DNA of 40,862 nt from a virus: the IMG/VR virus record IMGVR_UViG_3300029779_000011. One strand, given 5' to 3'. Below, in pieces: positions 3,195-40,328 of this stretch (within the stretch, counting starts at the first letter, position 1; each line of letters begins with the position of its first letter). The notes beneath the pieces were generated by a model. The model was not told where the DNA came from. It made no database searches and saw only the letters and a list, made by a program, of their open reading frames with translations. Made by a program: the position numbers and the translations under genes.

Positions 3195-3415
3195 TGGAAG
3201 ATAAACAGCAAGCGCCGTTTATCACGGATATCAACGGCGCAGAGATCTACGATGGGAACGAGTACTTTGTTTCCGACGAAGGAAACATTGCTGCCGCGGC
3301 GCCGGGTGAGAACTGGACCGTACAGAATGCGTTGATCGCGCATCTGGTGGAAACGTATGGCACGAATTGCATTGCCGAAAAGTGCGGCTTGGACAAGCGA
3401 GTCTGCAAGATTTAA
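3191..3415 (+). CDS. hypothetical protein, 74 aa
   Basis: ORF track. ATGA start/stop coupling. Confidence 0.55.
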   Translation: MMEDKQQAPFITDINGAEIYDGNEYFVSDEGNIAAAAPGENWTVQNALIAHLVETYGTNCIAEKCGLDKRVCKI

Positions 3416-3425
3416 GGAGGAAAGT

Positions 3426-4070
3426 ATGCTGAAAGGATTTAACGAGCTTGTACAGATCGACGTTTTGCCGTTCTGTGACAAGCGGAAGGCGAAGGATGAC
3501 AGCGGAAAGCCGATTGAAGTTCCGTATCTTCCGTGGGCGAAATGTAAAATGCTGCTCCACGAAAACGGGGCGAGCGAGGTCTACTTTGTGCCGCTGAAAA
3601 ATGAGACTGGCGGGTACTTATTCCAGTCAAAGGAAGTCCATGACAAGAATGGCAGAACGACGGGGTGCTATTTCGTTTCCGTCGAAATCCACATCGACGA
3701 TAAAACATTCCGCATGGATATGCCGCTGATGAACGGTTCCTTAGTGGTTTACGATGACACGTTGAATCAGCTTCGGATTTCCAACGCTCATGCGAGAGCG
3801 TTTGTGAAGGGCGTGGCAATTCACACAGGGCTTGGCTTCAAGCTTTGGCTGAACGACAAGGACACGGAGCGCGCAGACGATGACCTTTCCCAGCACAGCA
3901 TTATGGCGATCAAGCAGAGAATCGAACAGCTGATTACATTAAAACTGCAAAACGGGGCGGATATGAGCTATATCCTCTCGGGGCTTGGGCTGAATCAGAA
4001 GAAATTCGATCAGCTGATGGCGTCGTTCGGCAACATTCAGTATCTGGAAAACACGCTGAAACGCCTATGA
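3426..4070 (+). CDS. single-strand annealing protein, Sak/Rad52-like (DUF1071-type)
   Basis: ATG behind AAGGAGG. VPYLPWAKCKMLL and the following beta-rich core resemble the Sak family. Located next to an exonuclease. Confidence 0.65.
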   Translation: MLKGFNELVQIDVLPFCDKRKAKDDSGKPIEVPYLPWAKCKMLLHENGASEVYFVPLKNETGGYLFQSKEVHDKNGRTTGCYFVSVEIHIDDKTFRMDMPLMNGSLVVYDDTLNQLRISNAHARAFVKGVAIHTGLGFKLWLNDKDTERADDDLSQHSIMAIKQRIEQLITLKLQNGADMSYILSGLGLNQKKFDQLMASFGNIQYLENTLKRL

Positions 4071-4627
4071 TACACGACCACGACAGAAGCGGGTGGTTCG
4101 GCGCGTCGGACACGGCGGCGATCATGGGCAGATGGGATACAAAGACATTCCGCAGCTTTTGGCTGCAAAAGCTCGGCGTGAACCGCGACTACTTTTCAAC
4201 ACTGGAAATGGATACCGGAAGTGCTTACGAACACAGGATTCTGGAGCATATCGGCATCCGAAAGATGGACAGGCAGATCAAGATTCGGCGGCTTCGGCTT
4301 CGGGTGAATCTGGATGGCGAGGACGCACAGGAAATATCGGAAGTAAAGACGCACAAGGGAGAATCCTTCAAGGTGTCTCGTGCGTACTGGATGCAGGCGC
4401 AAGTTGAAATGTTCGCTGCGAAAAAGGCGCTGCGTATCGTGGCGTACCATCTGGAACCGGAAGACTACAGAAACTGGTTTCGGGAGATTGAGGACGATAG
4501 GTTGTCCTATCATCCGATACCGTATGATCGGGAATGGATAGAAGGGGAGTATCTGCCACGGCTTCGGTATCTTGCGAAGTGTCTTAGAAAGGGGGTCATT
4601 CCGGTTGATAGAGCTGAACATCGTTGA
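4067..4627 (+). CDS. YqaJ-like recombination exonuclease (PD-(D/E)xK)
   Basis: N-terminal GASDTAAIMG motif and an NLDGED..EISEVKT D-E-K signature. Confidence 0.75.
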   Translation: MIHDHDRSGWFGASDTAAIMGRWDTKTFRSFWLQKLGVNRDYFSTLEMDTGSAYEHRILEHIGIRKMDRQIKIRRLRLRVNLDGEDAQEISEVKTHKGESFKVSRAYWMQAQVEMFAAKKALRIVAYHLEPEDYRNWFREIEDDRLSYHPIPYDREWIEGEYLPRLRYLAKCLRKGVIPVDRAEHR

Positions 4628-5174
4628 AGCTTCGTGGAGCATGGACGCTTCGGGGAGCTGGCTGAAGCTCCGACCGGAGCTGCCCGGACAAGCCCGTATG
4701 GTTGCCGGGGAACTTGACCCACGGAAGAAACACATAGTCACGATCAAGGAATTTCGCAAGAAGCGGAGCTTGGATGCAAACCGATATCTCTGGACACTCT
4801 GCAACAAGCTTTCCGTCAAGGTTGGGATTCCGCCGGAAGAGGTCTACCGGCACTATATCCCGGACGTTGGCGACAACTCTGATACGATCTGTATTCCGGA
4901 CGCAGCGATCAAGCGGTTTCGGGAAGACTGGGAATCGCACGGACTCGGGCGCTGCACGGAGATCATGGCGTCAAAAATTCCGGGCTGCACGAATGTCATT
5001 TGCTACTACGGCTCGAGCACCTACGACACAAAGCAGATGGCGAGGCTTATCGATCTGGTCGTTGAGGATTGCAAACAGCAGGGCATTGAGACGCTCCCGC
5101 CGGAAGAGCTCGAGCGTATGGCGCTGGAATGGAGGCAGGATGAGAAAGGAAACGAAGGCGACAAAGATACCTGA
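4605..5174 (+). CDS. ninB: NinB/Orf-family recombination mediator (start uncertain: 4572, 4605 or 4641)
   Basis: VTIKEFRKKRSLDANRYLW, SSTYDTKQMARLIDLV and LALEW align by eye with lambda NinB. Confidence 0.75.
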   Translation: MIELNIVEASWSMDASGSWLKLRPELPGQARMVAGELDPRKKHIVTIKEFRKKRSLDANRYLWTLCNKLSVKVGIPPEEVYRHYIPDVGDNSDTICIPDAAIKRFREDWESHGLGRCTEIMASKIPGCTNVICYYGSSTYDTKQMARLIDLVVEDCKQQGIETLPPEELERMALEWRQDEKGNEGDKDT

Positions 5175-5439
5175 GAAGGTTAAGGAAGCTGTCTGGGCGC
5201 GCGACGGCGGGCGCTGTGTTGTTTGTTTACGAACCGGCAATCCGTGGTGCCACTTCATCCCACGCTCGCAGGGCGGGCTTGGAATCGAGCAGAACATCGT
5301 GACGCTTTGCGATAGCTGCCATATGGCATTCGACCAATCACCGAAGCGCAAAAGCCTGAGAGAGTATATCAGGCGGTATCTCAAGATGAAATATCCCGAT
5401 TGGGATGAAACGAAACTGATTTATAAGAAAGGGATGTAA
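5140..5439 (+). CDS. HNH endonuclease, 99 aa
   Basis: ATG behind GGAGG inside the longer track ORF. CVVC...HFIPRSQGG...N..TLCDSCH is an HNH motif. Confidence 0.8.
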   Translation: MRKETKATKIPEKVKEAVWARDGGRCVVCLRTGNPWCHFIPRSQGGLGIEQNIVTLCDSCHMAFDQSPKRKSLREYIRRYLKMKYPDWDETKLIYKKGM

Positions 5440-5441
5440 GC

Positions 5442-5609
5442 ATGGAAGAACACAAATCGTTTGTTTATCTGGATGCAGCTCAGTACAAGGAAATGGTGGA
5501 AAAAAGTATGCAGCTTTCGATGCTTGAGAGAGCGTACAAGGAACTGAAATCGTATGAGATTGAGTTTATCCTGAAAACCATCTTCGGGGAGAAGGAGGAA
5601 GCATGCTGA
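5442..5609 (+). CDS. hypothetical protein, 55 aa (below ORF-track cutoff)
   Basis: Hand translation gives MEEHKSFVYLDAAQYKEMVEK...GEKEEAC. The stop overlaps the ssb start (ATGCTGA). Confidence 0.5.
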   Translation: MEEHKSFVYLDAAQYKEMVEKSMQLSMLERAYKELKSYEIEFILKTIFGEKEEAC

Positions 5610-6004
5610 ACCACATTGTTATTATGGGCAGGCTCACGCGTGACCCGGAACTGAGAAAGACGCCGAACGGAACTTCGGTCGCATCTTTCACGCTGGCGGT
5701 CGATCGTGATTTTACGCCGGAAGGCGGAGAGAAAGAGACAGATTTCATTGACTGCGTCGCATGGAAGGGAACAGCTTATTTTGTCAGCGGATACTTCTTC
5801 AAGGGCAGCATGGCTGTCGTAGACGGTAGATTGCAGCTGCGCGACTGGAAGGACAAGGACGGAAACAAGCGCCGGTCTGCTGAGATCGTGGCGAATCGTG
5901 TTTACTTCGGCGAAGGAAAGAAATCTTCGGAGCCGAAGGACCCGGCAAACCCCGGCGGGTTTACGATGATGGACGAAGATGACGGCGATCAGCCGCCGTT
6001 CTAA
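5603..6004 (+). CDS. ssb: single-stranded DNA-binding protein
   Basis: OB-fold N-terminus MLNHIVIMGRLTRDPELR and an acidic tail DEDDGDQPPF. Confidence 0.95.
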   Translation: MLNHIVIMGRLTRDPELRKTPNGTSVASFTLAVDRDFTPEGGEKETDFIDCVAWKGTAYFVSGYFFKGSMAVVDGRLQLRDWKDKDGNKRRSAEIVANRVYFGEGKKSSEPKDPANPGGFTMMDEDDGDQPPF

Positions 6005-6016
6005 GGCGGTGGCGGG

Positions 6017-6733
6017 ATGGCAAACAACAAAGACCCTGCCGTCTTGTTTTACACGTCGGATTTCCTATCCGGCTGTGCCTTGATGGATATGCGGGAGCGT
6101 GGGCAGTATATCACGCTCCTGTGCCTCCAAAGAGAGCGCGGGCATATGACAATGCAGGAAATCATACGGGCTGTCAAAAAGCCGTCAGACGAGGTTATGA
6201 GCAAGTTTCAGAAGGATGAGGACGGCAAGTACTTCAATCGCCGGATGGAGCTTGAAATCGAAAAACGGGACAAGCATTGCCAGCGTCAAAGGGAGAACAT
6301 CAGCAAGCGTTGGAACAAAGAAAATGATAACTATGGTATGGCTGATGGTAGTGCTTGCGGTAATACCACGGTATTACCTTTAGGAAATGGAAATGGAAAT
6401 AGAAAAGAGAGTAGTTCTATTTCTGAGAAGAAACGTAAGAAATTTATACCACCTACGTTGGAAGATGTTTCCGCATACGCGAAGGAGCGTGGAGCCCCGA
6501 ATCTGGCACAGAAATTTTTCGACTATTATTCTGCCGGAAATTGGGTCGACGGGAAGGGCGACCCCGTACGGAACTGGAAGCAGAAGTTTTTGACGTGGGA
6601 ATCGAAAGAACGTGAGAAGGGCACGCCGTCACAGCCGGGGAAAAAGCCGGGGTACAACGTGCAGCATCACGACGGCGATCTGAGCGACTTACAGAAAGCG
6701 GCGATTCAGCGGATGTTGGGGGAGGAAGCATGA
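6017..6733 (+). CDS. DUF1376 (YdaU)-type replication organiser
   Basis: N-terminal FYTSDFLSG..M..RERGQYITLL pattern. C-terminal PTLEDVSAYAKERG...NWKQKFLTWE is typical of phage replisome organisers. Confidence 0.7.
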   Translation: MANNKDPAVLFYTSDFLSGCALMDMRERGQYITLLCLQRERGHMTMQEIIRAVKKPSDEVMSKFQKDEDGKYFNRRMELEIEKRDKHCQRQRENISKRWNKENDNYGMADGSACGNTTVLPLGNGNGNRKESSSISEKKRKKFIPPTLEDVSAYAKERGAPNLAQKFFDYYSAGNWVDGKGDPVRNWKQKFLTWESKEREKGTPSQPGKKPGYNVQHHDGDLSDLQKAAIQRMLGEEA

Positions 6734-32655: not shown

Positions 32656-32955
32656 ATGGACGACGGAATTCAGGCGCATGTCGCAGCGATCGACGCGCGC
32701 TGCAAATCCAACCAGCACCGCATCGACGAGCTCGAGGCGGACAACAAGGCGCTTCACCAGCTGGCTACCTCCGTAGAAGTGCTGGCGACGAAGCAGGAGA
32801 CGATCGAGTCGAACGTGAACGAGATCAAGACCGACGTGAAAGCCCTCAAGGCGCTCCCCGGCAGCCGCTGGGAGGGGCTTATCAAGGCAGCCGTGACAGC
32901 GATCGTCGCGGGGCTGGTCGGCTACGCGCTGGCTCTGGCGGGGCTGGGAGGCTAG
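32656..32955 (+). CDS. xhlA: XhlA-like lysis-associated membrane protein
   Basis: Coiled-coil N-terminus plus the C-terminal TM helix AAVTAIVAGLVGYALALAGL. Confidence 0.65.
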   Translation: MDDGIQAHVAAIDARCKSNQHRIDELEADNKALHQLATSVEVLATKQETIESNVNEIKTDVKALKALPGSRWEGLIKAAVTAIVAGLVGYALALAGLGG

Positions 32956-32956
32956 T

Positions 32957-33208
32957 ATGGCGGACGGGCAGAAAAAGCCGCAGCGGAAGACGAAGGGGCG
33001 CATGGCGCGGGAGCTGGTCTACTACTGCATTTACGCCCTGACGCTTACGCTCGCGTGGGCAGTGGTCATCAAGACGGTTGCGGTCATCCTCGACCGCCCG
33101 TCCGACCTCTCCGACGTGCTGATCTTCGCGGCGGCGTCGTTCGGCGGGGAGCTGCTGCTCCTGCTGTGCAAGAGAGTATTTGCGAAACCAAATGAACCGG
33201 TAGAATGA
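32957..33208 (+). CDS. holin-like membrane protein (2 TM)
   Basis: Basic N-terminus followed by two hydrophobic helices. Confidence 0.5.
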   Translation: MADGQKKPQRKTKGRMARELVYYCIYALTLTLAWAVVIKTVAVILDRPSDLSDVLIFAAASFGGELLLLLCKRVFAKPNEPVE

Positions 33209-33219
33209 AAGGGGTACAT

Positions 33220-33444
33220 ATGGATAATATCAAAAAGCGGCTGGGAAACCTGCTCAGCGTCAAGAGCCTGGTCACGATGATTCTGACCTGCGTGTTCGCC
33301 TACATGGCAGTCGTGGGCAAAATCTCGCAGGACTTTATGACCATTTATGCGGTCATCATTGCGTTTTATTTTGGAACCCAGTCCCAGAAGACGCAGGATG
33401 TGCTGGACAGTGCGGGCACGCCGCAGGAGGGCGAAAAGAAATGA
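33220..33444 (+). CDS. holin (2 TM, charged C-terminus); start 33205 or 33220
   Basis: SLVTMILTCVFAYMAVVG and IYAVIIAFYFG helices. Directly upstream of the endolysin. Confidence 0.6.
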   Translation: MDNIKKRLGNLLSVKSLVTMILTCVFAYMAVVGKISQDFMTIYAVIIAFYFGTQSQKTQDVLDSAGTPQEGEKK

Positions 33445-34133
33445 TGAAAGCATCCGAGCTTGTGCGCAGGCACATTGACGTTGCGAAGAATTACAAGACC
33501 GTCTACATGTGGGGCTGCTTCGGCTCCCCCGTGAGCGAAACGATCATTGACGAGAAATCCGCACAGTACCCGGACTGGTACACCGGCGGCAGAGTCACAT
33601 ATCTGCGCAGCCTCATCGGGAAGATCGTCTATGGCTTTGACTGCGTAAACCTGACAAAGGGCATTCTCTGGGGCTGGAACGGCAACAAAAACGCCTACTA
33701 CGGCGGTGCAAGATACGCCTCGAACAGCGTTCCGGATGTCTCCGCCGACGGCATGATCGCAAAGTGCAAGGACGTGTCAACGACCGGCTGGGACAAGCTG
33801 ATTCCCGGCGAAGGTCTCTGGATGCCCGGGCACTGGGGCATGTACATCGGTGACGGTCTGGCGGTCGAATGCACCCCGATCTGGGACAACGGCGTGCAGA
33901 TTACCGCTGTGCAGAACATCGGCACGAAAGCAGGCTACCACGCCCGCAAGTGGCAGAAGCACGGAAAGCTCCCGTGGGTGGAATACGATACCGTAAAGGT
34001 CGACGCCGAGGTTGAAGAAGCAAAGAAGACCATCCGGCAGAAAGCCGGTCTTACAGACAGCACGATCGATTACCTCGCCGGATACAAGTACGGTGACGAT
34101 CTTCTCAAAAAGCTCGCAGCAGCGATGAAGTAA
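33441..34133 (+). CDS. endolysin, NlpC/P60-like cysteine peptidase
   Basis: GFDCVNLTKG (catalytic Cys context) and GHWGMYIGDGLAVEC (His context). Confidence 0.65.
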   Translation: MMKASELVRRHIDVAKNYKTVYMWGCFGSPVSETIIDEKSAQYPDWYTGGRVTYLRSLIGKIVYGFDCVNLTKGILWGWNGNKNAYYGGARYASNSVPDVSADGMIAKCKDVSTTGWDKLIPGEGLWMPGHWGMYIGDGLAVECTPIWDNGVQITAVQNIGTKAGYHARKWQKHGKLPWVEYDTVKVDAEVEEAKKTIRQKAGLTDSTIDYLAGYKYGDDLLKKLAAAMK

Positions 34134-34145
34134 GGTGGTGTTATT

Positions 34146-34394
34146 ATGGCACCGCAGGCGCGGGCAAAACTCCCGCCAGAGCTTGGCGGTTTGACTAGAA
34201 AAGACATGGAAACCGTTATCTATCAGGCAAATCTAGGGAGAGAGAACGCGAAAATCGCGCAACTGTATTTTGTGGATAAGTTACCACAGGTAGATGTTGC
34301 GACGGAGCTGTATCTTGGACGCGCTACGGTGCAACGCCGCCTGCCGGGCATCGTGCGGGAGATGCAGCGCACATCCAGCAAATTGTATAGTTGA
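34146..34394 (+). CDS. stand-alone sigma-70 region-4-like HTH protein, 82 aa
   Basis: AKIAQLYFVDKLPQVDVATELYLGRATVQRRLPGIVREM fits the region-4 pattern. Confidence 0.5.
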   Translation: MAPQARAKLPPELGGLTRKDMETVIYQANLGRENAKIAQLYFVDKLPQVDVATELYLGRATVQRRLPGIVREMQRTSSKLYS

Positions 34395-34395
34395 T

Positions 34396-34427
34396 ATAAG
34401 CGCCGATTTCTCGGCGCTTATTTTTTA
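34396..34427 (+). terminator. rho-independent terminator of the late operon
   Basis: ATAAGCGCCGA-tttc-TCGGCGCTTAT followed by a T-run. Confidence 0.85.
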
Positions 34428-34446
34428 TAAAAATTTTGAAAAGCCC

Positions 34447-34475
34447 TTGACATATACGGTAATACAGTATATAAT
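34447..34475 (+). promoter_or_regulatory. consensus sigma-A promoter TTGACA-17-TATAAT with internal inverted repeat ATATAC-N9-GTATAT
   Basis: Hexamers and spacing read directly. The inverted repeat spans 34452-34472. Confidence 0.8.
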
Positions 34476-34531
34476 AAGGTCATAGAGACAAACCAAAACA
34501 AATACGACAATATATTTTGGAGGTAATTATA

Positions 34532-34912
34532 ATGCTTAATATTGTTTCGGCGTGGGGTGTACCGACAAACCCCGCCTATAACCCCGATACCGCGAACAAC
34601 GGCGGCGGGTATTGGCAGTTCTCAGGAGGCATTGTCGCCGATCTCGACGGTCAGACCGTCACCGTCGAGGTCGACGACACCTCCTGCGGCGATTTTGGCA
34701 GCCGCGTCTATTACGACGTGGCAGCCGATGGATACCGATGGTGGGTATCCGACGGCTCGATGGACGATGCGTCCATCGATGCTCCGGAAGATGTGGACGC
34801 GGTTTTGGCGTCCATCTCCGGTGTCCTGGGCGTGGACGCCGAAGCACTGATCTCAGCCGCGCGAGATGCTGCGAGCATCTGCGCGTGGGAGGGTGTGTGG
34901 AATGCCCACTGA
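34532..34912 (+). CDS. acidic lysine-free protein, 126 aa
   Basis: ATG behind GGAGG. Hand count gives about 20 Asp/Glu, 3 Arg and 0 Lys. The gene is locally GC-rich. Confidence 0.65.
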   Translation: MLNIVSAWGVPTNPAYNPDTANNGGGYWQFSGGIVADLDGQTVTVEVDDTSCGDFGSRVYYDVAADGYRWWVSDGSMDDASIDAPEDVDAVLASISGVLGVDAEALISAARDAASICAWEGVWNAH

Positions 34913-35084
34913 CGCGCAAAAGCGCACCCGCAACAAGTGGGACGCCGAGAACATGTCCGTGATCTCCTGCAAGCTCAAGCGGGAGATCGCGGAAACCTTT
35001 AAGGCCGTGGCGAAAGCCAACGGCACGACGCCGAACGAACTGATACGCGGCTGGATTTCTGAATACTTATTCGATCAAAACTGA
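34902..35084 (+). CDS. ribbon-helix-helix (CopG/Arc-like) DNA-binding protein, 60 aa
   Basis: Overlaps the upstream gene by 11 nt. MSVISCKLKREIAETFKAVAKANGTTPNELIRGWISEYL gives a beta-strand-helix-helix pattern. Confidence 0.6.
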   Translation: MPTDAQKRTRNKWDAENMSVISCKLKREIAETFKAVAKANGTTPNELIRGWISEYLFDQN

Positions 35085-35146
35085 TGCACAACTGAAGCAC
35101 AGGAAAATAGTAAAAAGCTCATACTGAACACAAAGGAGTGTTCGGT

Positions 35147-35530
35147 ATGGGCTTTTCTTATTTCAATCCAAACCCGGAAGGGAAACAAGTCGGAGACTGT
35201 ACCGTCCGGGCAATTTCAAAGGCGACGGGCAAGAGCTGGGATGAAACATACGTCGGGCTTTGCCTACAGGGGTTGAAAATGGGCGACATGCCGTCGGCAA
35301 ACAGTGTCTGGGGCGCGTACCTCCGGCAGCAGGGATTTACCCGGAACGTTGTGCCGAACACATGCCCGGACTGCTACACGGTCGCGGAATTTGCAAGAGA
35401 CCATCCGCGCGGCTTGTATGTACTCGCCTTATCAAGCCACGTTGTGTGCGTGGAAAACGGGACAATTTTTGATACATGGAACTCCGAAAACGAGATTCCG
35501 CTGTTCTACTGGGAAAAGGAGGATAAATGA
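35147..35530 (+). CDS. hypothetical protein with Cys/His papain-like signature
   Basis: FNPNPEGKQVGDCTVRAISKATGKSW (Cys) and LSSHVVCVENGTIFDTW (His). Confidence 0.55.
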   Translation: MGFSYFNPNPEGKQVGDCTVRAISKATGKSWDETYVGLCLQGLKMGDMPSANSVWGAYLRQQGFTRNVVPNTCPDCYTVAEFARDHPRGLYVLALSSHVVCVENGTIFDTWNSENEIPLFYWEKEDK

Positions 35531-35997
35531 TGTTCGGACAACAGCCTTATGTGTATCAGCAGCCGATTTACAATCAACCGCCCATGATGCAGGAACCAAT
35601 GATGCGTCCACAGTATCAGCCTGCGCCGTCGATGCAGTATCCGACTCCGCAACCTCAGCCACAGCAGCCGAGCGGTGGACAGTCCATCATATGGGTTCCG
35701 AACGAAAAGGCGGCAAACGAATTTATCGTCGCGCCGAATAACGCCGTCACACTCTGGGACATGAATGCGCCGGTTGTGTATGTGAAGAAAGCCGACGCAA
35801 GCGGTAAACCAGCAATGACAACGTATGACCTTGTAGAGCGCTCTACAGCCCCCGTGAGCCCCACAGCGCCGCAAACAGTTCCTACGGTGGAATACGTGAC
35901 CCGCAAGGACTTTGACGAACTGGCGGCAAAGGTGGCGGCTCTGAGTGTCAAGCCCGTTAGAAAGATGAAGGAGGCAGAAAATGAATCCACTGTTTAA
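35527..35997 (+). CDS. protein with Q/P/M/Y-rich N-terminal low-complexity region
   Basis: ATGA coupling. About the first 50 aa are MMFGQQPYVYQQPIYNQPPMMQEPMMRPQYQPAPSMQYPTPQPQPQQP, followed by a small globular domain. Confidence 0.65.
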   Translation: MMFGQQPYVYQQPIYNQPPMMQEPMMRPQYQPAPSMQYPTPQPQPQQPSGGQSIIWVPNEKAANEFIVAPNNAVTLWDMNAPVVYVKKADASGKPAMTTYDLVERSTAPVSPTAPQTVPTVEYVTRKDFDELAAKVAALSVKPVRKMKEAENESTV

Positions 35998-36196
35998 TGC
36001 ACTCGGCGGCGGGCAAATGCCCGGGGCTATGGGGCAGTTTCAAAATATGGTGCGGCAGTTTCAGCAGTTCAAGCAGAGCTTTCAGGGAGACCCGAAAGCG
36101 GAGGTTGAAAAGCTGGTGCAGTCTGGGAAAATCTCGCAGCAGCAGTTGAACCAGCTACAACAGGCGGCAAGCCAGTTTCAACAGCTTCTTGGATAA
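35981..36196 (+). CDS. Q-rich small protein, 71 aa
   Basis: ATG behind GGAGG. Overlaps the upstream gene. FQQFKQSFQ...QQQLNQLQQAASQFQQLLG. Confidence 0.6.
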   Translation: MNPLFNALGGGQMPGAMGQFQNMVRQFQQFKQSFQGDPKAEVEKLVQSGKISQQQLNQLQQAASQFQQLLG

Positions 36197-36209
36197 TTAA
36201 GATTTCAAT

Positions 36210-36221
36210 TCGTGCGCACGA
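36210..36221. promoter_or_regulatory. perfect 12-bp palindrome TCGTGCGCACGA
   Basis: Read directly. Lies 38 nt upstream of the 36259 start. Confidence 0.4.
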
Positions 36222-36258
36222 TTGAGATAAATTTCAAAATCTACGAAAGGAGAAAACT

Positions 36259-37056
36259 ATGAGTTTGAATGGCGATGGTATTCCTATGAACATGCCTGTA
36301 GTTCCGGCAAACTCGGACGGCGGAAACGGATGGGGCGGTGGTAATGGCTGGTGGATCATTATCCTGTTCCTCGCGATTTTCTGCGGCTGGGGTAACGGAA
36401 ACGGCTTTGGCAATCGTGGAGGGAACGGTGGCGTTATTGACGGCTATGTTCTGGCATCTGACTTCTCGAACATCGAAAGAAAGATTGACAGCGTGAACAA
36501 TGGTGTCTGCGACGGCTTCTATGCGATGAACACGGGGATGCTTAACGGCTTTGCCGGTGTAACGCAGGCTGTGACTTCCGGCTTCTCGAACGCTGAACTT
36601 TCCCGCTGCAATCAGCAGGCTGCGCTTATGCAGCAGCTGAACAACATGGCGATGCAGGCACAGGAGTGCTGCTGTGAAAACCGCGCTGCAATCGCCCAGG
36701 TGCGCTACGACATGGCGACGCAGGCATGCGACACCCGCAACACCGTGCAGAACAGCACTCGCGACATCATCGACGCGATGAACTGCGGCTTCCGCAGCAT
36801 TGACCAGAGATTGACGGCGCAGGAACTGGCTGCAAAGGACGCGAAGATTGCCGAGCAGAACCAGCAGCTCTTTGCGGCGCAGCTGGCGGCTTCTCAGGCG
36901 GCGCAGAACGACACGCTCAAGTCCTATGTGAGCGGGCAGTTGGCGTATTATAACCCGCGTCCGGTTCCGTCTTTTGCGGTTCCTGCTCCTTACCAGTTCG
37001 CTGGCTGTAACGGCTATAACGGCGGTTACAACTACGGCTGCGGCAACTGCGCTTAA
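36259..37056 (+). CDS. Gly/Asn/Trp-rich, Cys-rich single-pass membrane protein, 265 aa
   Basis: ATG behind AAAGGAGAA. GGNGWGGGNGWW-IIILFLAIFCGW-GNGNGFGNRGGNGG, an ECCCE motif, and the C-terminus GCNGYNGGYNYGCGNCA. Confidence 0.7.
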   Translation: MSLNGDGIPMNMPVVPANSDGGNGWGGGNGWWIIILFLAIFCGWGNGNGFGNRGGNGGVIDGYVLASDFSNIERKIDSVNNGVCDGFYAMNTGMLNGFAGVTQAVTSGFSNAELSRCNQQAALMQQLNNMAMQAQECCCENRAAIAQVRYDMATQACDTRNTVQNSTRDIIDAMNCGFRSIDQRLTAQELAAKDAKIAEQNQQLFAAQLAASQAAQNDTLKSYVSGQLAYYNPRPVPSFAVPAPYQFAGCNGYNGGYNYGCGNCA

Positions 37057-37124
37057 CTCCATAACGTAGAGCTTTTTCGTGGACTCACGAAAATGATCGG
37101 TTCCTTGCCGATACTCAAGAAACG

Positions 37125-37154
37125 CGGCGGGGCAATCGTCCCGCCGTTATTTTT
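37125..37154 (+). terminator. rho-independent terminator
   Basis: CGGCGGG-gcaatcgt-CCCGCCG followed by TTATTTTT. Confidence 0.7.
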
Positions 37155-37160
37155 AACCGT

Positions 37161-37172
37161 GTCGAATTCGAC
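37161..37172. promoter_or_regulatory. perfect 12-bp palindrome GTCGAATTCGAC
   Basis: Read directly. Lies 23 nt upstream of the 37195 start. Confidence 0.4.
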
Positions 37173-37194
37173 GCATTTAGAAAGGAATGATTTT

Positions 37195-37617
37195 ATGGCA
37201 GAATTTACGAATGTAAACATTCAGACAATTGCCGCCGGGCAGAATGTGCCTCTGACGGAAACGGCGATCAGCAGCAAGCCGTGCATTGTGCATCGAGAGG
37301 GAAGTGGGCTTGTGACGCTTCGCGGGCTGACAAACCAGTGCAAGGCGGTTTTCAAAATTTCCTACGGCGGCAACATTGCCATCCCAACCGGAGGAACCGT
37401 CGAAGCAATCACGGCGGCGCTCGCGATCAATGGGGAAGCCATCGCAAGTGCGACGGCGACCGTGACTCCGGCGGCAGTTGAAAACTATTTCAACGTTTAT
37501 GTTTCGGCACAGATTTCTGTTCCGAAGGGCTGCTGTGTGACGGTTGGTATGAGAAACACAAGCACGCAGGCTATCAATTTCGCTAACAGCAATCTGACGA
37601 TTGAGAGAGTGGCATGA
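37195..37617 (+). CDS. all-beta protein resembling BclA-C-terminal / C1q-TNF jelly roll, 140 aa
   Basis: Internal ATG of the track ORF. The alternating-beta pattern, including VFKISYGGNI...ALAINGEAI...VTVGMRNTS...NLTIERVA, recalls BclA-CTD-like proteins. Confidence 0.6.
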   Translation: MAEFTNVNIQTIAAGQNVPLTETAISSKPCIVHREGSGLVTLRGLTNQCKAVFKISYGGNIAIPTGGTVEAITAALAINGEAIASATATVTPAAVENYFNVYVSAQISVPKGCCVTVGMRNTSTQAINFANSNLTIERVA

Positions 37618-37631
37618 AAGGAGGATGCAAT

Positions 37632-38003
37632 ATGTACGATTTAAGAAATCTCCGTGAAATGCTCTGCAAAGAGCTGGACGAAATCGCCGACAAGCGCGAA
37701 ATGTCCGCCGGTGACTTGGACGCAATCCAGAAGCTGACGAGTTCCATCAAGAACACCTACAAAATCGAAATGCTTGAGGACGGCGGCTATTCCCGAGATG
37801 GTGAGTGGGAATCCGATATGCGCGGCACGTATGGGCGCGGCAGCTCCTACCGTGGCAGGCATCGCGATTCTATGGGGCGATACAGCCGGACAGATGCTCG
37901 GGAGCATATGCGCTCGACGCTGGAAGACATGATGCACGACGCGGACGATGATAAAACGCGCGAGGCTATCCGGCGCTGCATGGAGCAGATTGACAGAGCA
38001 TAA
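37632..38003 (+). CDS. charged helical hypothetical protein with RGSSYRGRHRDSMGRYSR tract
   Basis: ATG 6 nt after AAAGGAGGA. An alternative coupled start lies at 37614. Confidence 0.6.
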   Translation: MYDLRNLREMLCKELDEIADKREMSAGDLDAIQKLTSSIKNTYKIEMLEDGGYSRDGEWESDMRGTYGRGSSYRGRHRDSMGRYSRTDAREHMRSTLEDMMHDADDDKTREAIRRCMEQIDRA

Positions 38004-38015
38004 GGAGGGAAAGAC

Positions 38016-38360
38016 ATGCTGGATGAAGCCGAAATCCGAAAGGAAATAGCACGGCTGGAATACGAAGAATCCAGCTATCCCAATTATGCCAAGCTGGCGA
38101 ACCTATATGTGATACGCGACAAGATGCAGGGAGCGGAGAATGCCAGAGATAAGTTTGTGGGTTACTACTCTGGCGCTCCCGCCCCTGTGACCGCAGAACC
38201 GGCTACCGTGGGCGAGTACGGGGACAGTGAGTTTTTGCTTGCAGTAGCTGGGAAAGACCCGGCGAAGGCTTGGGCGGTCGTTGATGAACTCATGGATACA
38301 CTGGCGATGGTAAACAGCAAGGTCTATAACTCTGTTATGCGGAAAATCAAAGGCATATAG
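38016..38360 (+). CDS. hypothetical protein, 114 aa
   Basis: ATG behind AAGGAGGGA. Last gene before attP. Confidence 0.6.
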   Translation: MLDEAEIRKEIARLEYEESSYPNYAKLANLYVIRDKMQGAENARDKFVGYYSGAPAPVTAEPATVGEYGDSEFLLAVAGKDPAKAWAVVDELMDTLAMVNSKVYNSVMRKIKGI

Positions 38361-38622: not shown

Positions 38623-38643
38623 TATGCTACATCGTATGTTACA
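38623..38643 (+). repeat. arm-type repeat pair TATGCTACA-tcg-TATGTTACA (right of the att core)
   Basis: Mirror-ordered copy of 38373..38393. Overlaps the integrase stop codon. Confidence 0.6.
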
Positions 38644-39772
38644 AACTGCCGGTTATGGCAGGGGACTCCCTCGTTTTTTCGTCCCCTTGCAGCTGGTTTA
38701 CCGCGTCTACCATCCCACGCATATCTGGATGAACATATCTCTGCGTCGTCGTTATTTTTGTGTGTCGCATGATCTCTTTGATAGTAAACAAGTCTATGTT
38801 TTTTATGGCAAGCGCTGTGGCGGTTGTATGGCGGCACGAGTACGGCGGGAGTTTCCGCGCACCGGCTAGTTCCAAGCACTCATAGTATCGCTTGTAAAAG
38901 TTGTCTTTGTTTATGCAGCAGACGTTCCCGACTTTGGACTTACTTTCTTCACAGAGTTCACGCAGCACGGGTGCGACGAAGTCTGGGAAGACCATAGGCG
39001 TTTCTTTCCGCTTCTTTGTTTTTATGCCGCCCCGGACGATCTCGTTTTTCTCAAAGTCAATCATATCCTTCTTGAGCTTCAGCAATTCTCCCGGCATCAT
39101 GCCTGTATAGATCATCGTGAGGATAAAACCGACAAAATGATCTTTTGCATACGCTTCCCATAGTTTTTTGACGTCGGCGTCGGTAAACGGCTCCGGCGAT
39201 TTTTCGTCCAGTTCCGGGAGCTTAATATATTCCGCGAGATTGACAGTGGTCTGTTTTTCAGCAATCGCGAGGTTATAGCAGTGTGAAAGGACTGTTTTCA
39301 TGTCCTTCCGCGTGTAATAGGTGCTGGCATTGCGGTCGACAACATCCTGTATCTGTGAGATGGTGAGCGTGTCAATTTCGCAGTCGGCGAGCTCCTTCAT
39401 GCGCTCGAAAGCTTTTTCCGCTGCCCCCTGCCGGTTCGCCGACAAGGACAGGTAATCTCCGCGCAGATACGTCTTGTAGTATGCTCTGAGTGTAGGGCTT
39501 CGCCGCTCTTCTTTCGGCGGGTTGGCGGCATATTGGAGCGCGGCACGCTTTGACGTAAAGCCTCCCTTTGTCTTCATCTTTTGATGGAGCTTGTCGTTTT
39601 CGTCGAGGTACGTCTTTTCAGTCCACCTGGCAGTCCACGTTTTCCCACGCTGGTAGGCGTTTCCTTGCCCGTTCCCGCGTGTCCGGTTTCGATGCGCTTG
39701 CTGCTGTTTCCCACACCAGCAGCAGAACGCCGAGCCGTCAGGAATTTCTTTTTTACACTTGATGCACTCCAT
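38639..39772 (-). CDS. int: tyrosine integrase with N-terminal zinc-ribbon
   Basis: C-terminal RHTTATALA...HTKITTTQRYVH (R-H-R-Y catalytic pattern). N-terminal CIKC...CCWCG. Start chosen behind GGAGG; the track start is 39802. Confidence 0.9.
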   Translation of the reverse strand: MECIKCKKEIPDGSAFCCWCGKQQQAHRNRTRGNGQGNAYQRGKTWTARWTEKTYLDENDKLHQKMKTKGGFTSKRAALQYAANPPKEERRSPTLRAYYKTYLRGDYLSLSANRQGAAEKAFERMKELADCEIDTLTISQIQDVVDRNASTYYTRKDMKTVLSHCYNLAIAEKQTTVNLAEYIKLPELDEKSPEPFTDADVKKLWEAYAKDHFVGFILTMIYTGMMPGELLKLKKDMIDFEKNEIVRGGIKTKKRKETPMVFPDFVAPVLRELCEESKSKVGNVCCINKDNFYKRYYECLELAGARKLPPYSCRHTTATALAIKNIDLFTIKEIMRHTKITTTQRYVHPDMRGMVDAVNQLQGDEKTRESPAITGSL

Positions 39773-40328
39773 GTTTTCCTCCACGTTCTTTTCGAATTGC
39801 ATAGAAAGTAATTGCTGAAGCCAGCGCTGAACCTACAATCAGGGCGATGCACGCCCATGCAGCTACGGACAAATCTCCATCGCGAATGAGACCTGTGTTC
39901 CGAATTTGCGCATCCGTCACAAGGCAGGCAATTAGAGAAAAGGAGAGCAGCATACAAAACAGGGCGAGAACGTAACACATTGTATGTGTAGCCCTTATCT
40001 GTGCGCTCTGCGCGGCTGTTGTTGCCGCCAGCTTGGCGTTTTCGATCTCGACATGATGAATCTGCTCGGTCAGTTCTTCCGGGCTTTCTGCGGGTTTGAC
40101 AAGCCCGCACAACTCATCCAGCGACAGCCCGAGAACGCGGCATAGCGCGGCAGAATTGTACAGTTTCGGGTCTTGCTGTGTTCCTGCGCAGAGCTTCGTC
40201 ACAGCCGATCTGGAAACGCCGGATTCTTCAACAAGCCTATCGATGGTGTAATGCTGATCTTCCTTCGCCCGCTTTATGTTACTCTGATATGCAGAAAGAT
40301 ATGGGGCGAGTTCCTGAATCGCCGACAT
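39753..40328 (-). CDS. membrane-anchored XRE-family HTH regulator
   Basis: N-terminal HTH (YTIDRLVEESGVSRSAVTKLCAG) and two C-terminal TM helices (CYVLALFCMLLSFSLIACL and AAWACIALIVGSALASAITFY). Confidence 0.75.
   Translation of the reverse strand: MSAIQELAPYLSAYQSNIKRAKEDQHYTIDRLVEESGVSRSAVTKLCAGTQQDPKLYNSAALCRVLGLSLDELCGLVKPAESPEELTEQIHHVEIENAKLAATTAAQSAQIRATHTMCYVLALFCMLLSFSLIACLVTDAQIRNTGLIRDGDLSVAAWACIALIVGSALASAITFYAIRKERGGKHGVHQV

Follow-up and report, generated by a model that had tools for sequence, protein, structure and literature searches.

The viral contig IMGVR_UViG_3300029779_000011 of the IMG/VR database, a stretch of 40,862 nucleotides that was analysed as a whole and is called "the window" below, is derived from a temperate phage and carries a compact two-gene cassette between positions 34396 and 35156. 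Both genes are served by one shared promoter, and hairpins lie on both flanks. The first gene, named gene A here, encodes an acidic cargo protein of 126 aa, and the second encodes a 60-aa ribbon-helix-helix (RHH)-like protein, which occupies the position of an Aca regulator and is a putative autorepressor. From comparative sequence analysis, we consider it moderately probable that the cassette is a counter-defence unit of the acr-aca type with gene A as the candidate effector. Gene A would represent a candidate anti-defence family, probably of the anti-CRISPR kind, and the candidacy is well founded because sister phages hold a known anti-CRISPR gene in the same slot.

Layout of the cassette

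The left boundary of the cassette is an intrinsic terminator (34396..34428, plus strand) that ends the late/lysis transcription unit. Its hairpin (34396-34421) consists of 11 pairs, six of them G-C, closed by a 4-nt loop and followed by a T-run; it is located directly after the stop codon of an 82-aa gene and is conserved in two of the related loci described below (L086 and L072). It is followed by a sigma-70-type promoter (34447..34475, plus strand), composed of the -35 hexamer TTGACA (34447-34452), a 17-nt spacer and the -10 hexamer TATAAT (34470-34475). This promoter matches the consensus at 12 of 12 positions, is the sole perfect TTGACA-17-TATAAT on either strand of the 40.9-kb window, and such a perfect match appeared in none of 100 shuffles of the window. 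The intergenic region as a whole (34395-34531) has a GC content of 30% and includes an A/T-rich stretch upstream of the promoter.

Embedded in the promoter is a putative operator (34452..34472, plus strand), a 21-bp palindrome of the composition ATATACGGTA-A-TACAGTATAT with 10-bp arms and one mismatch. It begins at the last base of the -35 hexamer, fills the spacer completely and ends with the third base of the -10 hexamer, so that the right arm (34463-34472) covers the first half of the latter. No second copy of the palindrome exists in the window, even if three mismatches are tolerated, and none would be expected by chance. An initial annotation, made from the letters of the window, had noted an inverted repeat ATATAC-N9-GTATAT in the spacer; this repeat is present, but its extent was understated, since it is part of the longer palindrome. 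Other elements of that annotation, namely the terminator ahead of a textbook promoter, the lysine-free acidic product of the first gene and the 11-nt overlap with a second gene for a 60-aa product, were all recovered at their positions.

The 5' untranslated leader (34476..34531, plus strand), with transcription expected to start near 34482, contains the Shine-Dalgarno sequence GGAGG (34519-34523) of gene A (34532..34912, plus strand). No significant RNA structure was found in the leader (z +0.49), and a scan of the regulatory region against Rfam yielded no family at threshold, only sub-threshold terminator look-alikes; since the leader is unstructured, a regulatory RNA layer like that of Aca2 is not indicated. 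The RHH-like gene (34902..35084, plus strand) starts with an ATG 11 nt inside gene A and is preceded by its own Shine-Dalgarno sequence, GGGAGGG, 8 nt upstream.

Downstream of the stop codon of the RHH-like gene, a perfect 19-bp hairpin (35113..35156, plus strand) constitutes the probable right terminator of the cassette. Its minimum free energy of -34.6 kcal/mol compares with a shuffle mean of -15.7 (z -5.9), and none of 200 shuffles was as stable; the T-run that follows is weak (CTTATTTC). The loop of this hairpin contains a ribosome-binding site (AAGGAG) and its 3' arm the ATG (35147) of the next gene, which encodes a 127-aa protein of phrog_3754. The structure could serve both to end the cassette transcript and to occlude the translation start of the downstream gene.

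Cargo exchange and co-variation of operator and regulator

For comparison, two sets of 80 viral loci each, retrieved with gene A and with the RHH-like protein as the respective seed, were classified by their content between promoter and RHH-like gene, which resulted in 54 distinct cassette sequences. Five cargo states were encountered ahead of the RHH-like gene. Gene A is the cargo in 35 of the 54 distinct cassettes, an AcrIC5-like acidic protein of 66 aa in nine, and a set of three genes (~71-77, 254 and 260 aa) in eight; one cassette contains a 90-aa acidic protein together with zinc-finger proteins, and in another one the promoter stands directly before the RHH-like gene, without any cargo. 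Promoter, operator and RHH-like gene form a conserved shell around a variable cargo. The promoter 29-mer is nearly invariant, with 21 sequence variants across the 54 cassettes, and the operator arms are almost invariant as well, while the centre base varies freely between A, T, C and G; in the AcrIC5-type cassettes, the palindrome is perfect (TACCGTA arm).

The exchange is best seen upon alignment of the window with the sister locus L086. The flanks are 86% identical on the left (33444-34506) and 91.5% identical from the ATG of the RHH-like gene (34902) onward, and the breakpoints fall at ~34507 in the 5' leader and exactly at the start codon of the RHH-like gene (34902). Between these points, gene A is cleanly replaced by the 66-aa acidic protein, which occupies the same slot. 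The 66-aa protein covers the full model of the Pfam family PF22147 (AcrIC5) at 88.7 bits (cut-off 27; E-value 2.7e-25), and its match to the solved structure of AcrIC5, PDB 7yhr, has an E-value of 3.7e-10. By sequence it is a clear member of the AcrIC5 family, carried by sister cassettes and not by the window. AcrIC5, a highly acidic protein with homologues in both Firmicutes and Actinobacteria, has been validated as an inhibitor of type I-C systems and prevents the binding of target DNA (PMC7913775; bioRxiv 10.1101/2025.06.06.658234). Among the proteins of the three-gene set, the 260-aa protein carries a precomputed label as AcrVA2-like (PF26125).

The freedom with which the slot is filled bears on the question of whether gene A might be a gene of phage development, such as an anti-repressor or a modulator of lysis timing or of the product of the neighbouring gene, which resembles sigma-70 region 4. 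A small gene of this sigma-70-region-4-like type is the neighbour of the cassette in all backbones examined, the distant locus L171 among them. However, an essential gene would not be exchanged freely for an AcrIC5 homologue, nor would it be missing altogether, as is the case in the cassette of L136. Furthermore, in L129 and L166 the cassette is inverted, so that it is convergent with the sigma-70-region-4-like gene, and in L001, L003 and L170 gene A is found in other contexts. Because gene A can be replaced or missing and the cassette can be inverted, a developmental role is very unlikely.

The linkage between operator and regulator was assessed on the gene-A-seeded loci, which are an unbiased sample with respect to the regulator. 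Operator and RHH-like gene are both present in 57 loci and both missing in 26; the operator alone was found in none, and the RHH-like gene alone in a single locus, whose contig ends 25 nt upstream of gene A. In other words, the operator accompanies gene A in 57 of 58 loci with the RHH-like gene and in 0 of 26 loci without it. Of the 80 RHH-seeded loci, 77 carry the operator upstream, and two of the remaining three are truncated contigs. An alternative cassette is present in L072 (2566-3767) and, likewise, in L066, L067 and L073-L083. These phages share the backbone and have a perfect TTGACA-17-TATAAT promoter with a different palindrome, TACACGCA-T-TGCGTGTA. Behind it lie the gene for an 87-aa acidic protein, gene A and, in place of the RHH-like gene, one for a 113-aa protein with a weak transcription-regulator match at its C-terminus. 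Regulator and palindrome co-vary in these sequences; a change of the putative regulator goes along with a change of the palindrome. The 87-aa acidic protein of L072 (pI, isoelectric point, 4.1) matches no family; the 87-90-aa type occurs also in L148 and L102 and is another uncharacterised candidate cargo.

Overlapping genes behind a palindromic promoter are also typical of type II toxin-antitoxin operons, in which case gene A would be the toxin, encoded first, and the RHH protein an antitoxin that autoregulates the pair through the palindrome. Weak similarity of the 60-aa protein to antitoxins of the RelB/BrnA type (E 0.025-0.1) points in this direction. The pairing is, however, not obligate, given that gene A occurs without the RHH-like gene in 26 of 84 loci and that the RHH-like gene occurs with unrelated cargo or alone. 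In addition, the RHH domain (residues 18-56 of 60) fills the protein and leaves no toxin-binding tail, and gene A is extremely acidic and matches no toxin family. Because of the non-obligate pairing and the missing toxin-binding tail, the toxin-antitoxin explanation was rejected; we regard it as exceedingly unlikely.

The assignment of the 60-aa protein to the RHH class, as proposed in the initial annotation, is probable. The protein displays the canonical pattern, comprising a hydrophobic strand (MSVISCKL), helix A, a G-T-T-P segment and helix B (NELIRGWISEYL), and a basic N-terminal arm of 17 residues (MPTDAQKRTRNKWDAEN) precedes the predicted ribbon. It matches phrog_7325, a CopG-like repressor family, with an E-value of 6.3e-6. 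In Foldseek searches, the top matches of its structural model were PutA-RHH, Arc, AvtR, AmrZ and ParD (0.4-1.1 A over ~30 residues, all with E >1), and the hairpin of helix A and helix B superposes on Arc with 0.4-0.6 A over 33 residues. An hhalign comparison with Arc is in register with a pairwise E-value of 0.0027, at a probability of only 11%. The 134 homologues of the protein stem from gut phages and are at least 68% identical in the aligned sample.

Gene A and its possible targets

The protein encoded by gene A contains 16 Asp and four Glu residues, three Arg and no Lys, which corresponds to a computed pI of 4.05 and a net charge of -17 and makes it the most acidic product among the 65 plus-strand open reading frames of the window. 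Neither a signal peptide nor a membrane segment is present, and the protein is predicted to be soluble. The GC content of the gene is 60.9% versus a window mean of 51.9%, which confirms that it is richer than its surroundings, as had been remarked initially; the difference is not extreme, since it corresponds to the 96th percentile of 381-nt windows. The region 32800-33100 reaches 66% GC, above the value of gene A. Reading the gene as a "GC-rich island" of foreign origin was discarded, considering this percentile and the presence of richer parts elsewhere in the phage.

Homologues of gene A comprise 185 close relatives in a word-indexed search and 277 clusters at 50% identity in an exhaustive profile search. 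Almost all of them are stand-alone proteins of 110-140 aa, and no Pfam domain was detected in the N-terminal fusion partners among the profile matches. Acidity is a trait of the family, with a median net charge of -14 and a pI below 6 in 222 of 229 members. Two motifs are invariant, NNGGGYWQ and SCGDFGSR, and the invariant alignment positions can be given as N23-G-G-G-Y-(W)-Q29, C52-G-(D)-F-G-(S)-R58, W70 and G75. The structure prediction that had been suggested in the initial annotation resulted in a confident AlphaFold2 model based on the family alignment (mean predicted local distance difference test, pLDDT, 91.4; predicted template modelling score, pTM, 0.85), in which five strands are followed by two C-terminal helices.

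Searches with gene A in Pfam (Acr families included), PHROG, NCBIfam and PADLOC returned no family. No match was obtained in the PDB, where profile searches gave E-values of at least 0.94 and the best Foldseek hit had an E-value of 0.44, and in the BFVD Foldseek retrieved only an uncharacterised member of the family. Likewise, tblastn searches of GenBank phage records with the window protein and with a distant family member gave no match, and a literature search for the sequence motifs returned none. With no match among solved structures, the predicted fold of gene A differs from those of all anti-defence proteins, DNA mimics and sponges solved so far. Gene A constitutes an unreported family, whose fold is predicted with confidence and is without a solved counterpart. 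A profile match to P0202, a Bacteroidota-type surface protein of 4885 aa that combines 18 Ig_7 repeats with a Por secretion tail, in which profile positions 11-55 matched 18 times (E 6.6e-12), was judged a spurious coincidence of repeated motifs.

As to the mode of action, the idea that gene A is a DNA mimic draws on the conserved acidity of the family and lacks a fold match to any known mimic; it remains a guess. The invariant glycine and aromatic motifs are more indicative of a specific binding site than of generic charge mimicry. One reading, which we consider improbable, is that gene A acts through an invariant pocket made up of the NNGGGYWQ loop and the SCGDFGSR turn, as a structurally new family and not by charge mimicry. 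This pocket could sequester or modify a conserved small ligand, e.g., an immune signalling nucleotide; alternatively, it could bind to a Cas protein or another defence protein at a conserved site. If true, ~277 sequence clusters of gut phages would share a fold and a mode of inhibition that are both new.

The same motifs raise the question of the target. In a serious, if unlikely, alternative, the cassette is of the same kind, with gene A directed against a defence system other than CRISPR, such as restriction-modification, BREX, CBASS, Thoeris or type III cyclic oligoadenylate (cOA) signalling, where it could act, for instance, as a ligand sponge or as an enzyme using the NNGGGYWQ/SCGDFGSR site. 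The invariant Gly-rich segment together with Y27, W28, Q29, F55, R58 and W70 resembles a ligand-binding or active site more than the surface of a mimic. Aca-regulated operons reportedly contain diverse anti-defence genes and not only acr genes (PMC13551039), and in L171, where gene A follows a lysin gene and a 68-aa sigma-70-region-4-like gene, a Tad2-like gene (PF11195; 87 aa, 1264-1527) is located 2.5 kb upstream of the gene A homologue. Against this stands that the sole same-slot cargo of a validated family is an anti-CRISPR, that Foldseek revealed no similarity to any solved structure, solved sponges included, and that the strong negative charge is not obviously suited to the binding of anionic nucleotides.

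Homologues of gene A are also found outside the conserved shell. L170 is an unrelated phage with a P22-like portal whose gene A homologue is 54% identical. Here, an operon (3397-6558) behind a near-consensus promoter flanked by an inverted repeat encodes a 155-aa protein, the gene A homologue, a 185-aa zinc-ribbon protein, a 132-aa sigma-70-region-4/GerE-like protein, a 334-aa protein flagged as AcrVA2-like and, at its end, a 58-aa protein that passes the Pfam RHH_1 threshold (23.3 versus 20.5 bits). There is a resemblance between the zinc-ribbon protein and the 254-aa protein of the three-gene cargo. Downstream of gene A in L001, at a distance of 5 kb, is an AcrVA2-like gene whose product is 51% identical to the 260-aa cassette protein. 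In L003 (6377-10727), the genes after gene A encode an unknown protein of 378 aa, an SNF2 helicase and a pair of PAPS-reductase/DUF3440 and ParB_N proteins, which we take to resemble IbrA/IbrB. In L172, the gene A homologue is situated two genes upstream of an Ltp-type lipoprotein gene.

This last neighbourhood is one of several features that would suit a moron, i.e., a lysogenic conversion gene by which gene A benefits the lysogen through superinfection exclusion or an effect on host physiology, with the RHH protein as its regulator. The position between lysis genes and integrase, the own strong sigma-70 promoter and the terminator-like hairpins at both flanks are in line with such a role. 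It is nonetheless improbable, considering that gene A encodes a predicted soluble, acidic protein without a signal peptide or membrane segment, that PADLOC gave no match to a defence protein and that AcrIC5-family and AcrVA2-like-flagged genes are held in the same slot.

Several points weigh against an acr-aca-type cassette with gene A as effector. No homology ties gene A itself to any function, and invariant Gly, aromatic, Cys and Arg motifs are unusual for an Acr that acts by protein mimicry. The AcrVA2-like label of the 260-aa cargo comes from precomputed annotation only and is kept as a lead, because neither the local Pfam scan nor the PDB sequence search reproduced it; moreover, homologues of AcrVA2 occur widely on mobile elements, in most cases in the absence of Cas12a, and could have different targets. 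On the side of the regulator, the RHH fold of the 60-aa protein stays below the Pfam thresholds (RHH_1, 13.4 bits at a cut-off of 20.5; DUF6290, 18.4 at a cut-off of 27; RHH_10 weak), and the AlphaFold2 monomer consists of two helices (4-39 and 44-59) without a strand, the ribbon segment being drawn as helical. The latter observation is not decisive, because the ribbon forms only in the dimer; the initial proposal of an RHH protein is supported by the CopG-like PHROG match and the canonical pattern and falls short in these two respects. The cassette of L102 (1707-2680) combines the TACACGCA palindrome promoter with an 87-aa acidic gene, gene A and then the RHH-like gene, without the usual ATATACGGTA operator; it is apparently a recombinant and the only exception to the pairing of operator and RHH-like gene. 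Finally, many of the loci are closely related and come from one large metagenome project, so that the counts overstate the number of independent events. The qualitative pattern, several cargo swaps and one swap of regulator plus operator, is independent of the counts.

On balance, the comparative evidence, with AcrIC5 in the same slot, the co-occurrence of operator and RHH-like gene and their co-variation, supports the initial suggestion of an acr-aca-like candidate that may be autoregulated through the promoter palindrome.

Proposed regulation, known counterparts and phage setting

The mechanism that we envisage for the acr-aca-type cassette draws on the behaviour of the Aca1, Aca2 and Aca14 operons (PMC13551039) and on the association of the slot with AcrIC5. 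Upon DNA entry, the consensus promoter would fire without any phage factor, and the bicistronic mRNA would give rise to gene A and, by translational coupling, to the RHH protein. Gene A would act as an effector that blocks a host immune system, most likely CRISPR-Cas and plausibly of type I-C. With its accumulation, the RHH protein would bind the 21-bp palindrome in the -35/-10 spacer, probably as a dimer of dimers, and turn the promoter down to a low maintenance level, and likewise in the lysogen, which would result in burst-then-repress kinetics.

In architecture, the cassette corresponds to a known type, the acr-aca locus; what is new is the gene A family, not a principle. In JBD30-like phages, the acr locus lies in the head-morphogenesis region. 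Like the acr-aca loci of Pseudomonas phages and further mobile elements (acrIC5/acrIF-aca1; Leon et al. 2021, PMC7913775), the cassette has one or more variable small inhibitor genes that immediately precede a conserved gene for a small DNA-binding protein, a strong promoter with an inverted-repeat operator, cargo that differs between near-identical phages and an AcrIC5-family member among the cargoes. It deviates from these loci in that the regulator is RHH-like and not a helix-turn-helix (HTH) protein as Aca1, the host belongs to a gut Clostridia lineage, gene A falls in no described Acr family, and the cassette follows the lysis module instead of residing in the head-morphogenesis region.

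An RHH protein as Aca had initially been viewed as a variant design; this view has been overtaken by Aca14, an RHH-type Aca that represses through a promoter inverted repeat, as demonstrated by electrophoretic mobility shift and reporter assays (Feussner et al., Nucleic Acids Research, September 2026, PMC13551039). Given its publication with biochemical validation, the regulator type is no longer a new design. Both systems combine an RHH protein of ~60-66 aa in the aca position with a promoter inverted repeat, overlapping the -10 of the acr promoter, and with several cargoes. Aca14 originates from Pasteurella/Proteobacteria, has mainly AcrIF23, AcrIF6, AcrVA3 and csx20 as cargoes and an AT-rich repeat overlapping the -10, while in our case the phage has a Firmicute host, the slot is filled by gene A or by AcrIC5-like or AcrVA2-like proteins, and the palindrome fills the -35/-10 spacer and reaches the -35. 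The comparison of the window protein with the Pasteurella multocida protein (WP_005725436.1 / HDR1349883.1) is one of description, and the Aca14 paper makes no mention of AcrIC5 or Clostridia (PMC13551039). The RHH-like regulator described here is one of Firmicutes phages with an operator layout different from that of Aca14.

Tiny RHH repressors with a palindromic operator of ~21 bp overlapping the promoter that they repress are represented by the CopG type and the Arc/Mnt pair of the P22 immI region. The window encodes a similarly tiny RHH-like protein with a palindromic operator of ~21 bp in its promoter; it differs from Arc/Mnt and CopG in the lack of significant sequence homology, in its basic N-terminal extension and in its putative role, which would be the control of counter-defence cargo instead of immunity genes. 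Anti-CRISPR loci downstream of the lysis module are familiar from Firmicutes prophages, as in the Listeria acrIIA1 loci. In the Clostridioides difficile phage phiCD38-2, acrIB2 sits right after the lysis genes (PMC10732046) and, like the cassette of the window, directly follows structural/lysis genes in the same transcription direction and beside a lysogeny/accessory region. In contrast to the cassette, the acrIB2 and Listeria acrIIA1 loci have AP2-domain, HTH or no regulators, and their Acr proteins are unrelated to gene A.

Anti-defence genes in phages of strictly anaerobic gut Firmicutes are almost unexplored, and the conserved promoter, operator and RHH-like gene provide an anchor for the mining of further cargo from gut viromes. 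Gene A is a clean and experimentally tractable Acr or anti-defence candidate. If validated, it would constitute a new Acr or anti-defence family, possibly directed against the type I-C systems that are common in Clostridia, and the RHH class of Aca regulators would be extended to Firmicutes. Anti-CRISPR-type proteins are, in addition, of interest as potential off-switches for CRISPR tools.

The phage is temperate and siphovirus-like, with gut Oscillospiraceae or related Clostridia as its probable hosts. Its relatives are viral contigs of ~40 kb from gut metagenomes. The gene A family is phage-borne, with 197 relatives in IMG/VR versus two among 185,579 species genomes, the few genomic matches being one Oscillospiraceae and one Clostridia metagenome-assembled genome; one homologue of the 60-aa RHH-like protein is named as a Hominenteromicrobium protein. 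The left part of the window comprises genes for a Sak-like annealing protein and an HNH protein, followed by the structural genes, and at the right end an integrase (38639-39802) and a CI-like regulator (39753-40328) are encoded on the minus strand. Just before the cassette are a holin-like gene (33205-33444), an endolysin gene (33441-34133) and the 82-aa sigma-70-region-4-like gene (34146-34394, plus strand), which is the last gene of the lysis operon, with its stop codon directly before the terminator; its product resembles an isolated sigma-70 region 4 or HTH domain.

With the lysis genes on its left and the integrase-side block on its right, the cassette is, therefore, placed between the lysis module and a conserved block of 3.2 kb. 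This block (35147-38360, plus strand) contains six conserved genes without an assigned function between cassette and integrase (phrog_3754, 21718, 22984, 16490, 20016 and 28802). A 265-aa protein encoded at 36259-37056 is Gly-rich at its N-terminus and Cys-rich at its C-terminus (...YGCGNCA), and shows weak PADLOC matches to PD-T4-6 and LeoBC (E ~1e-3).

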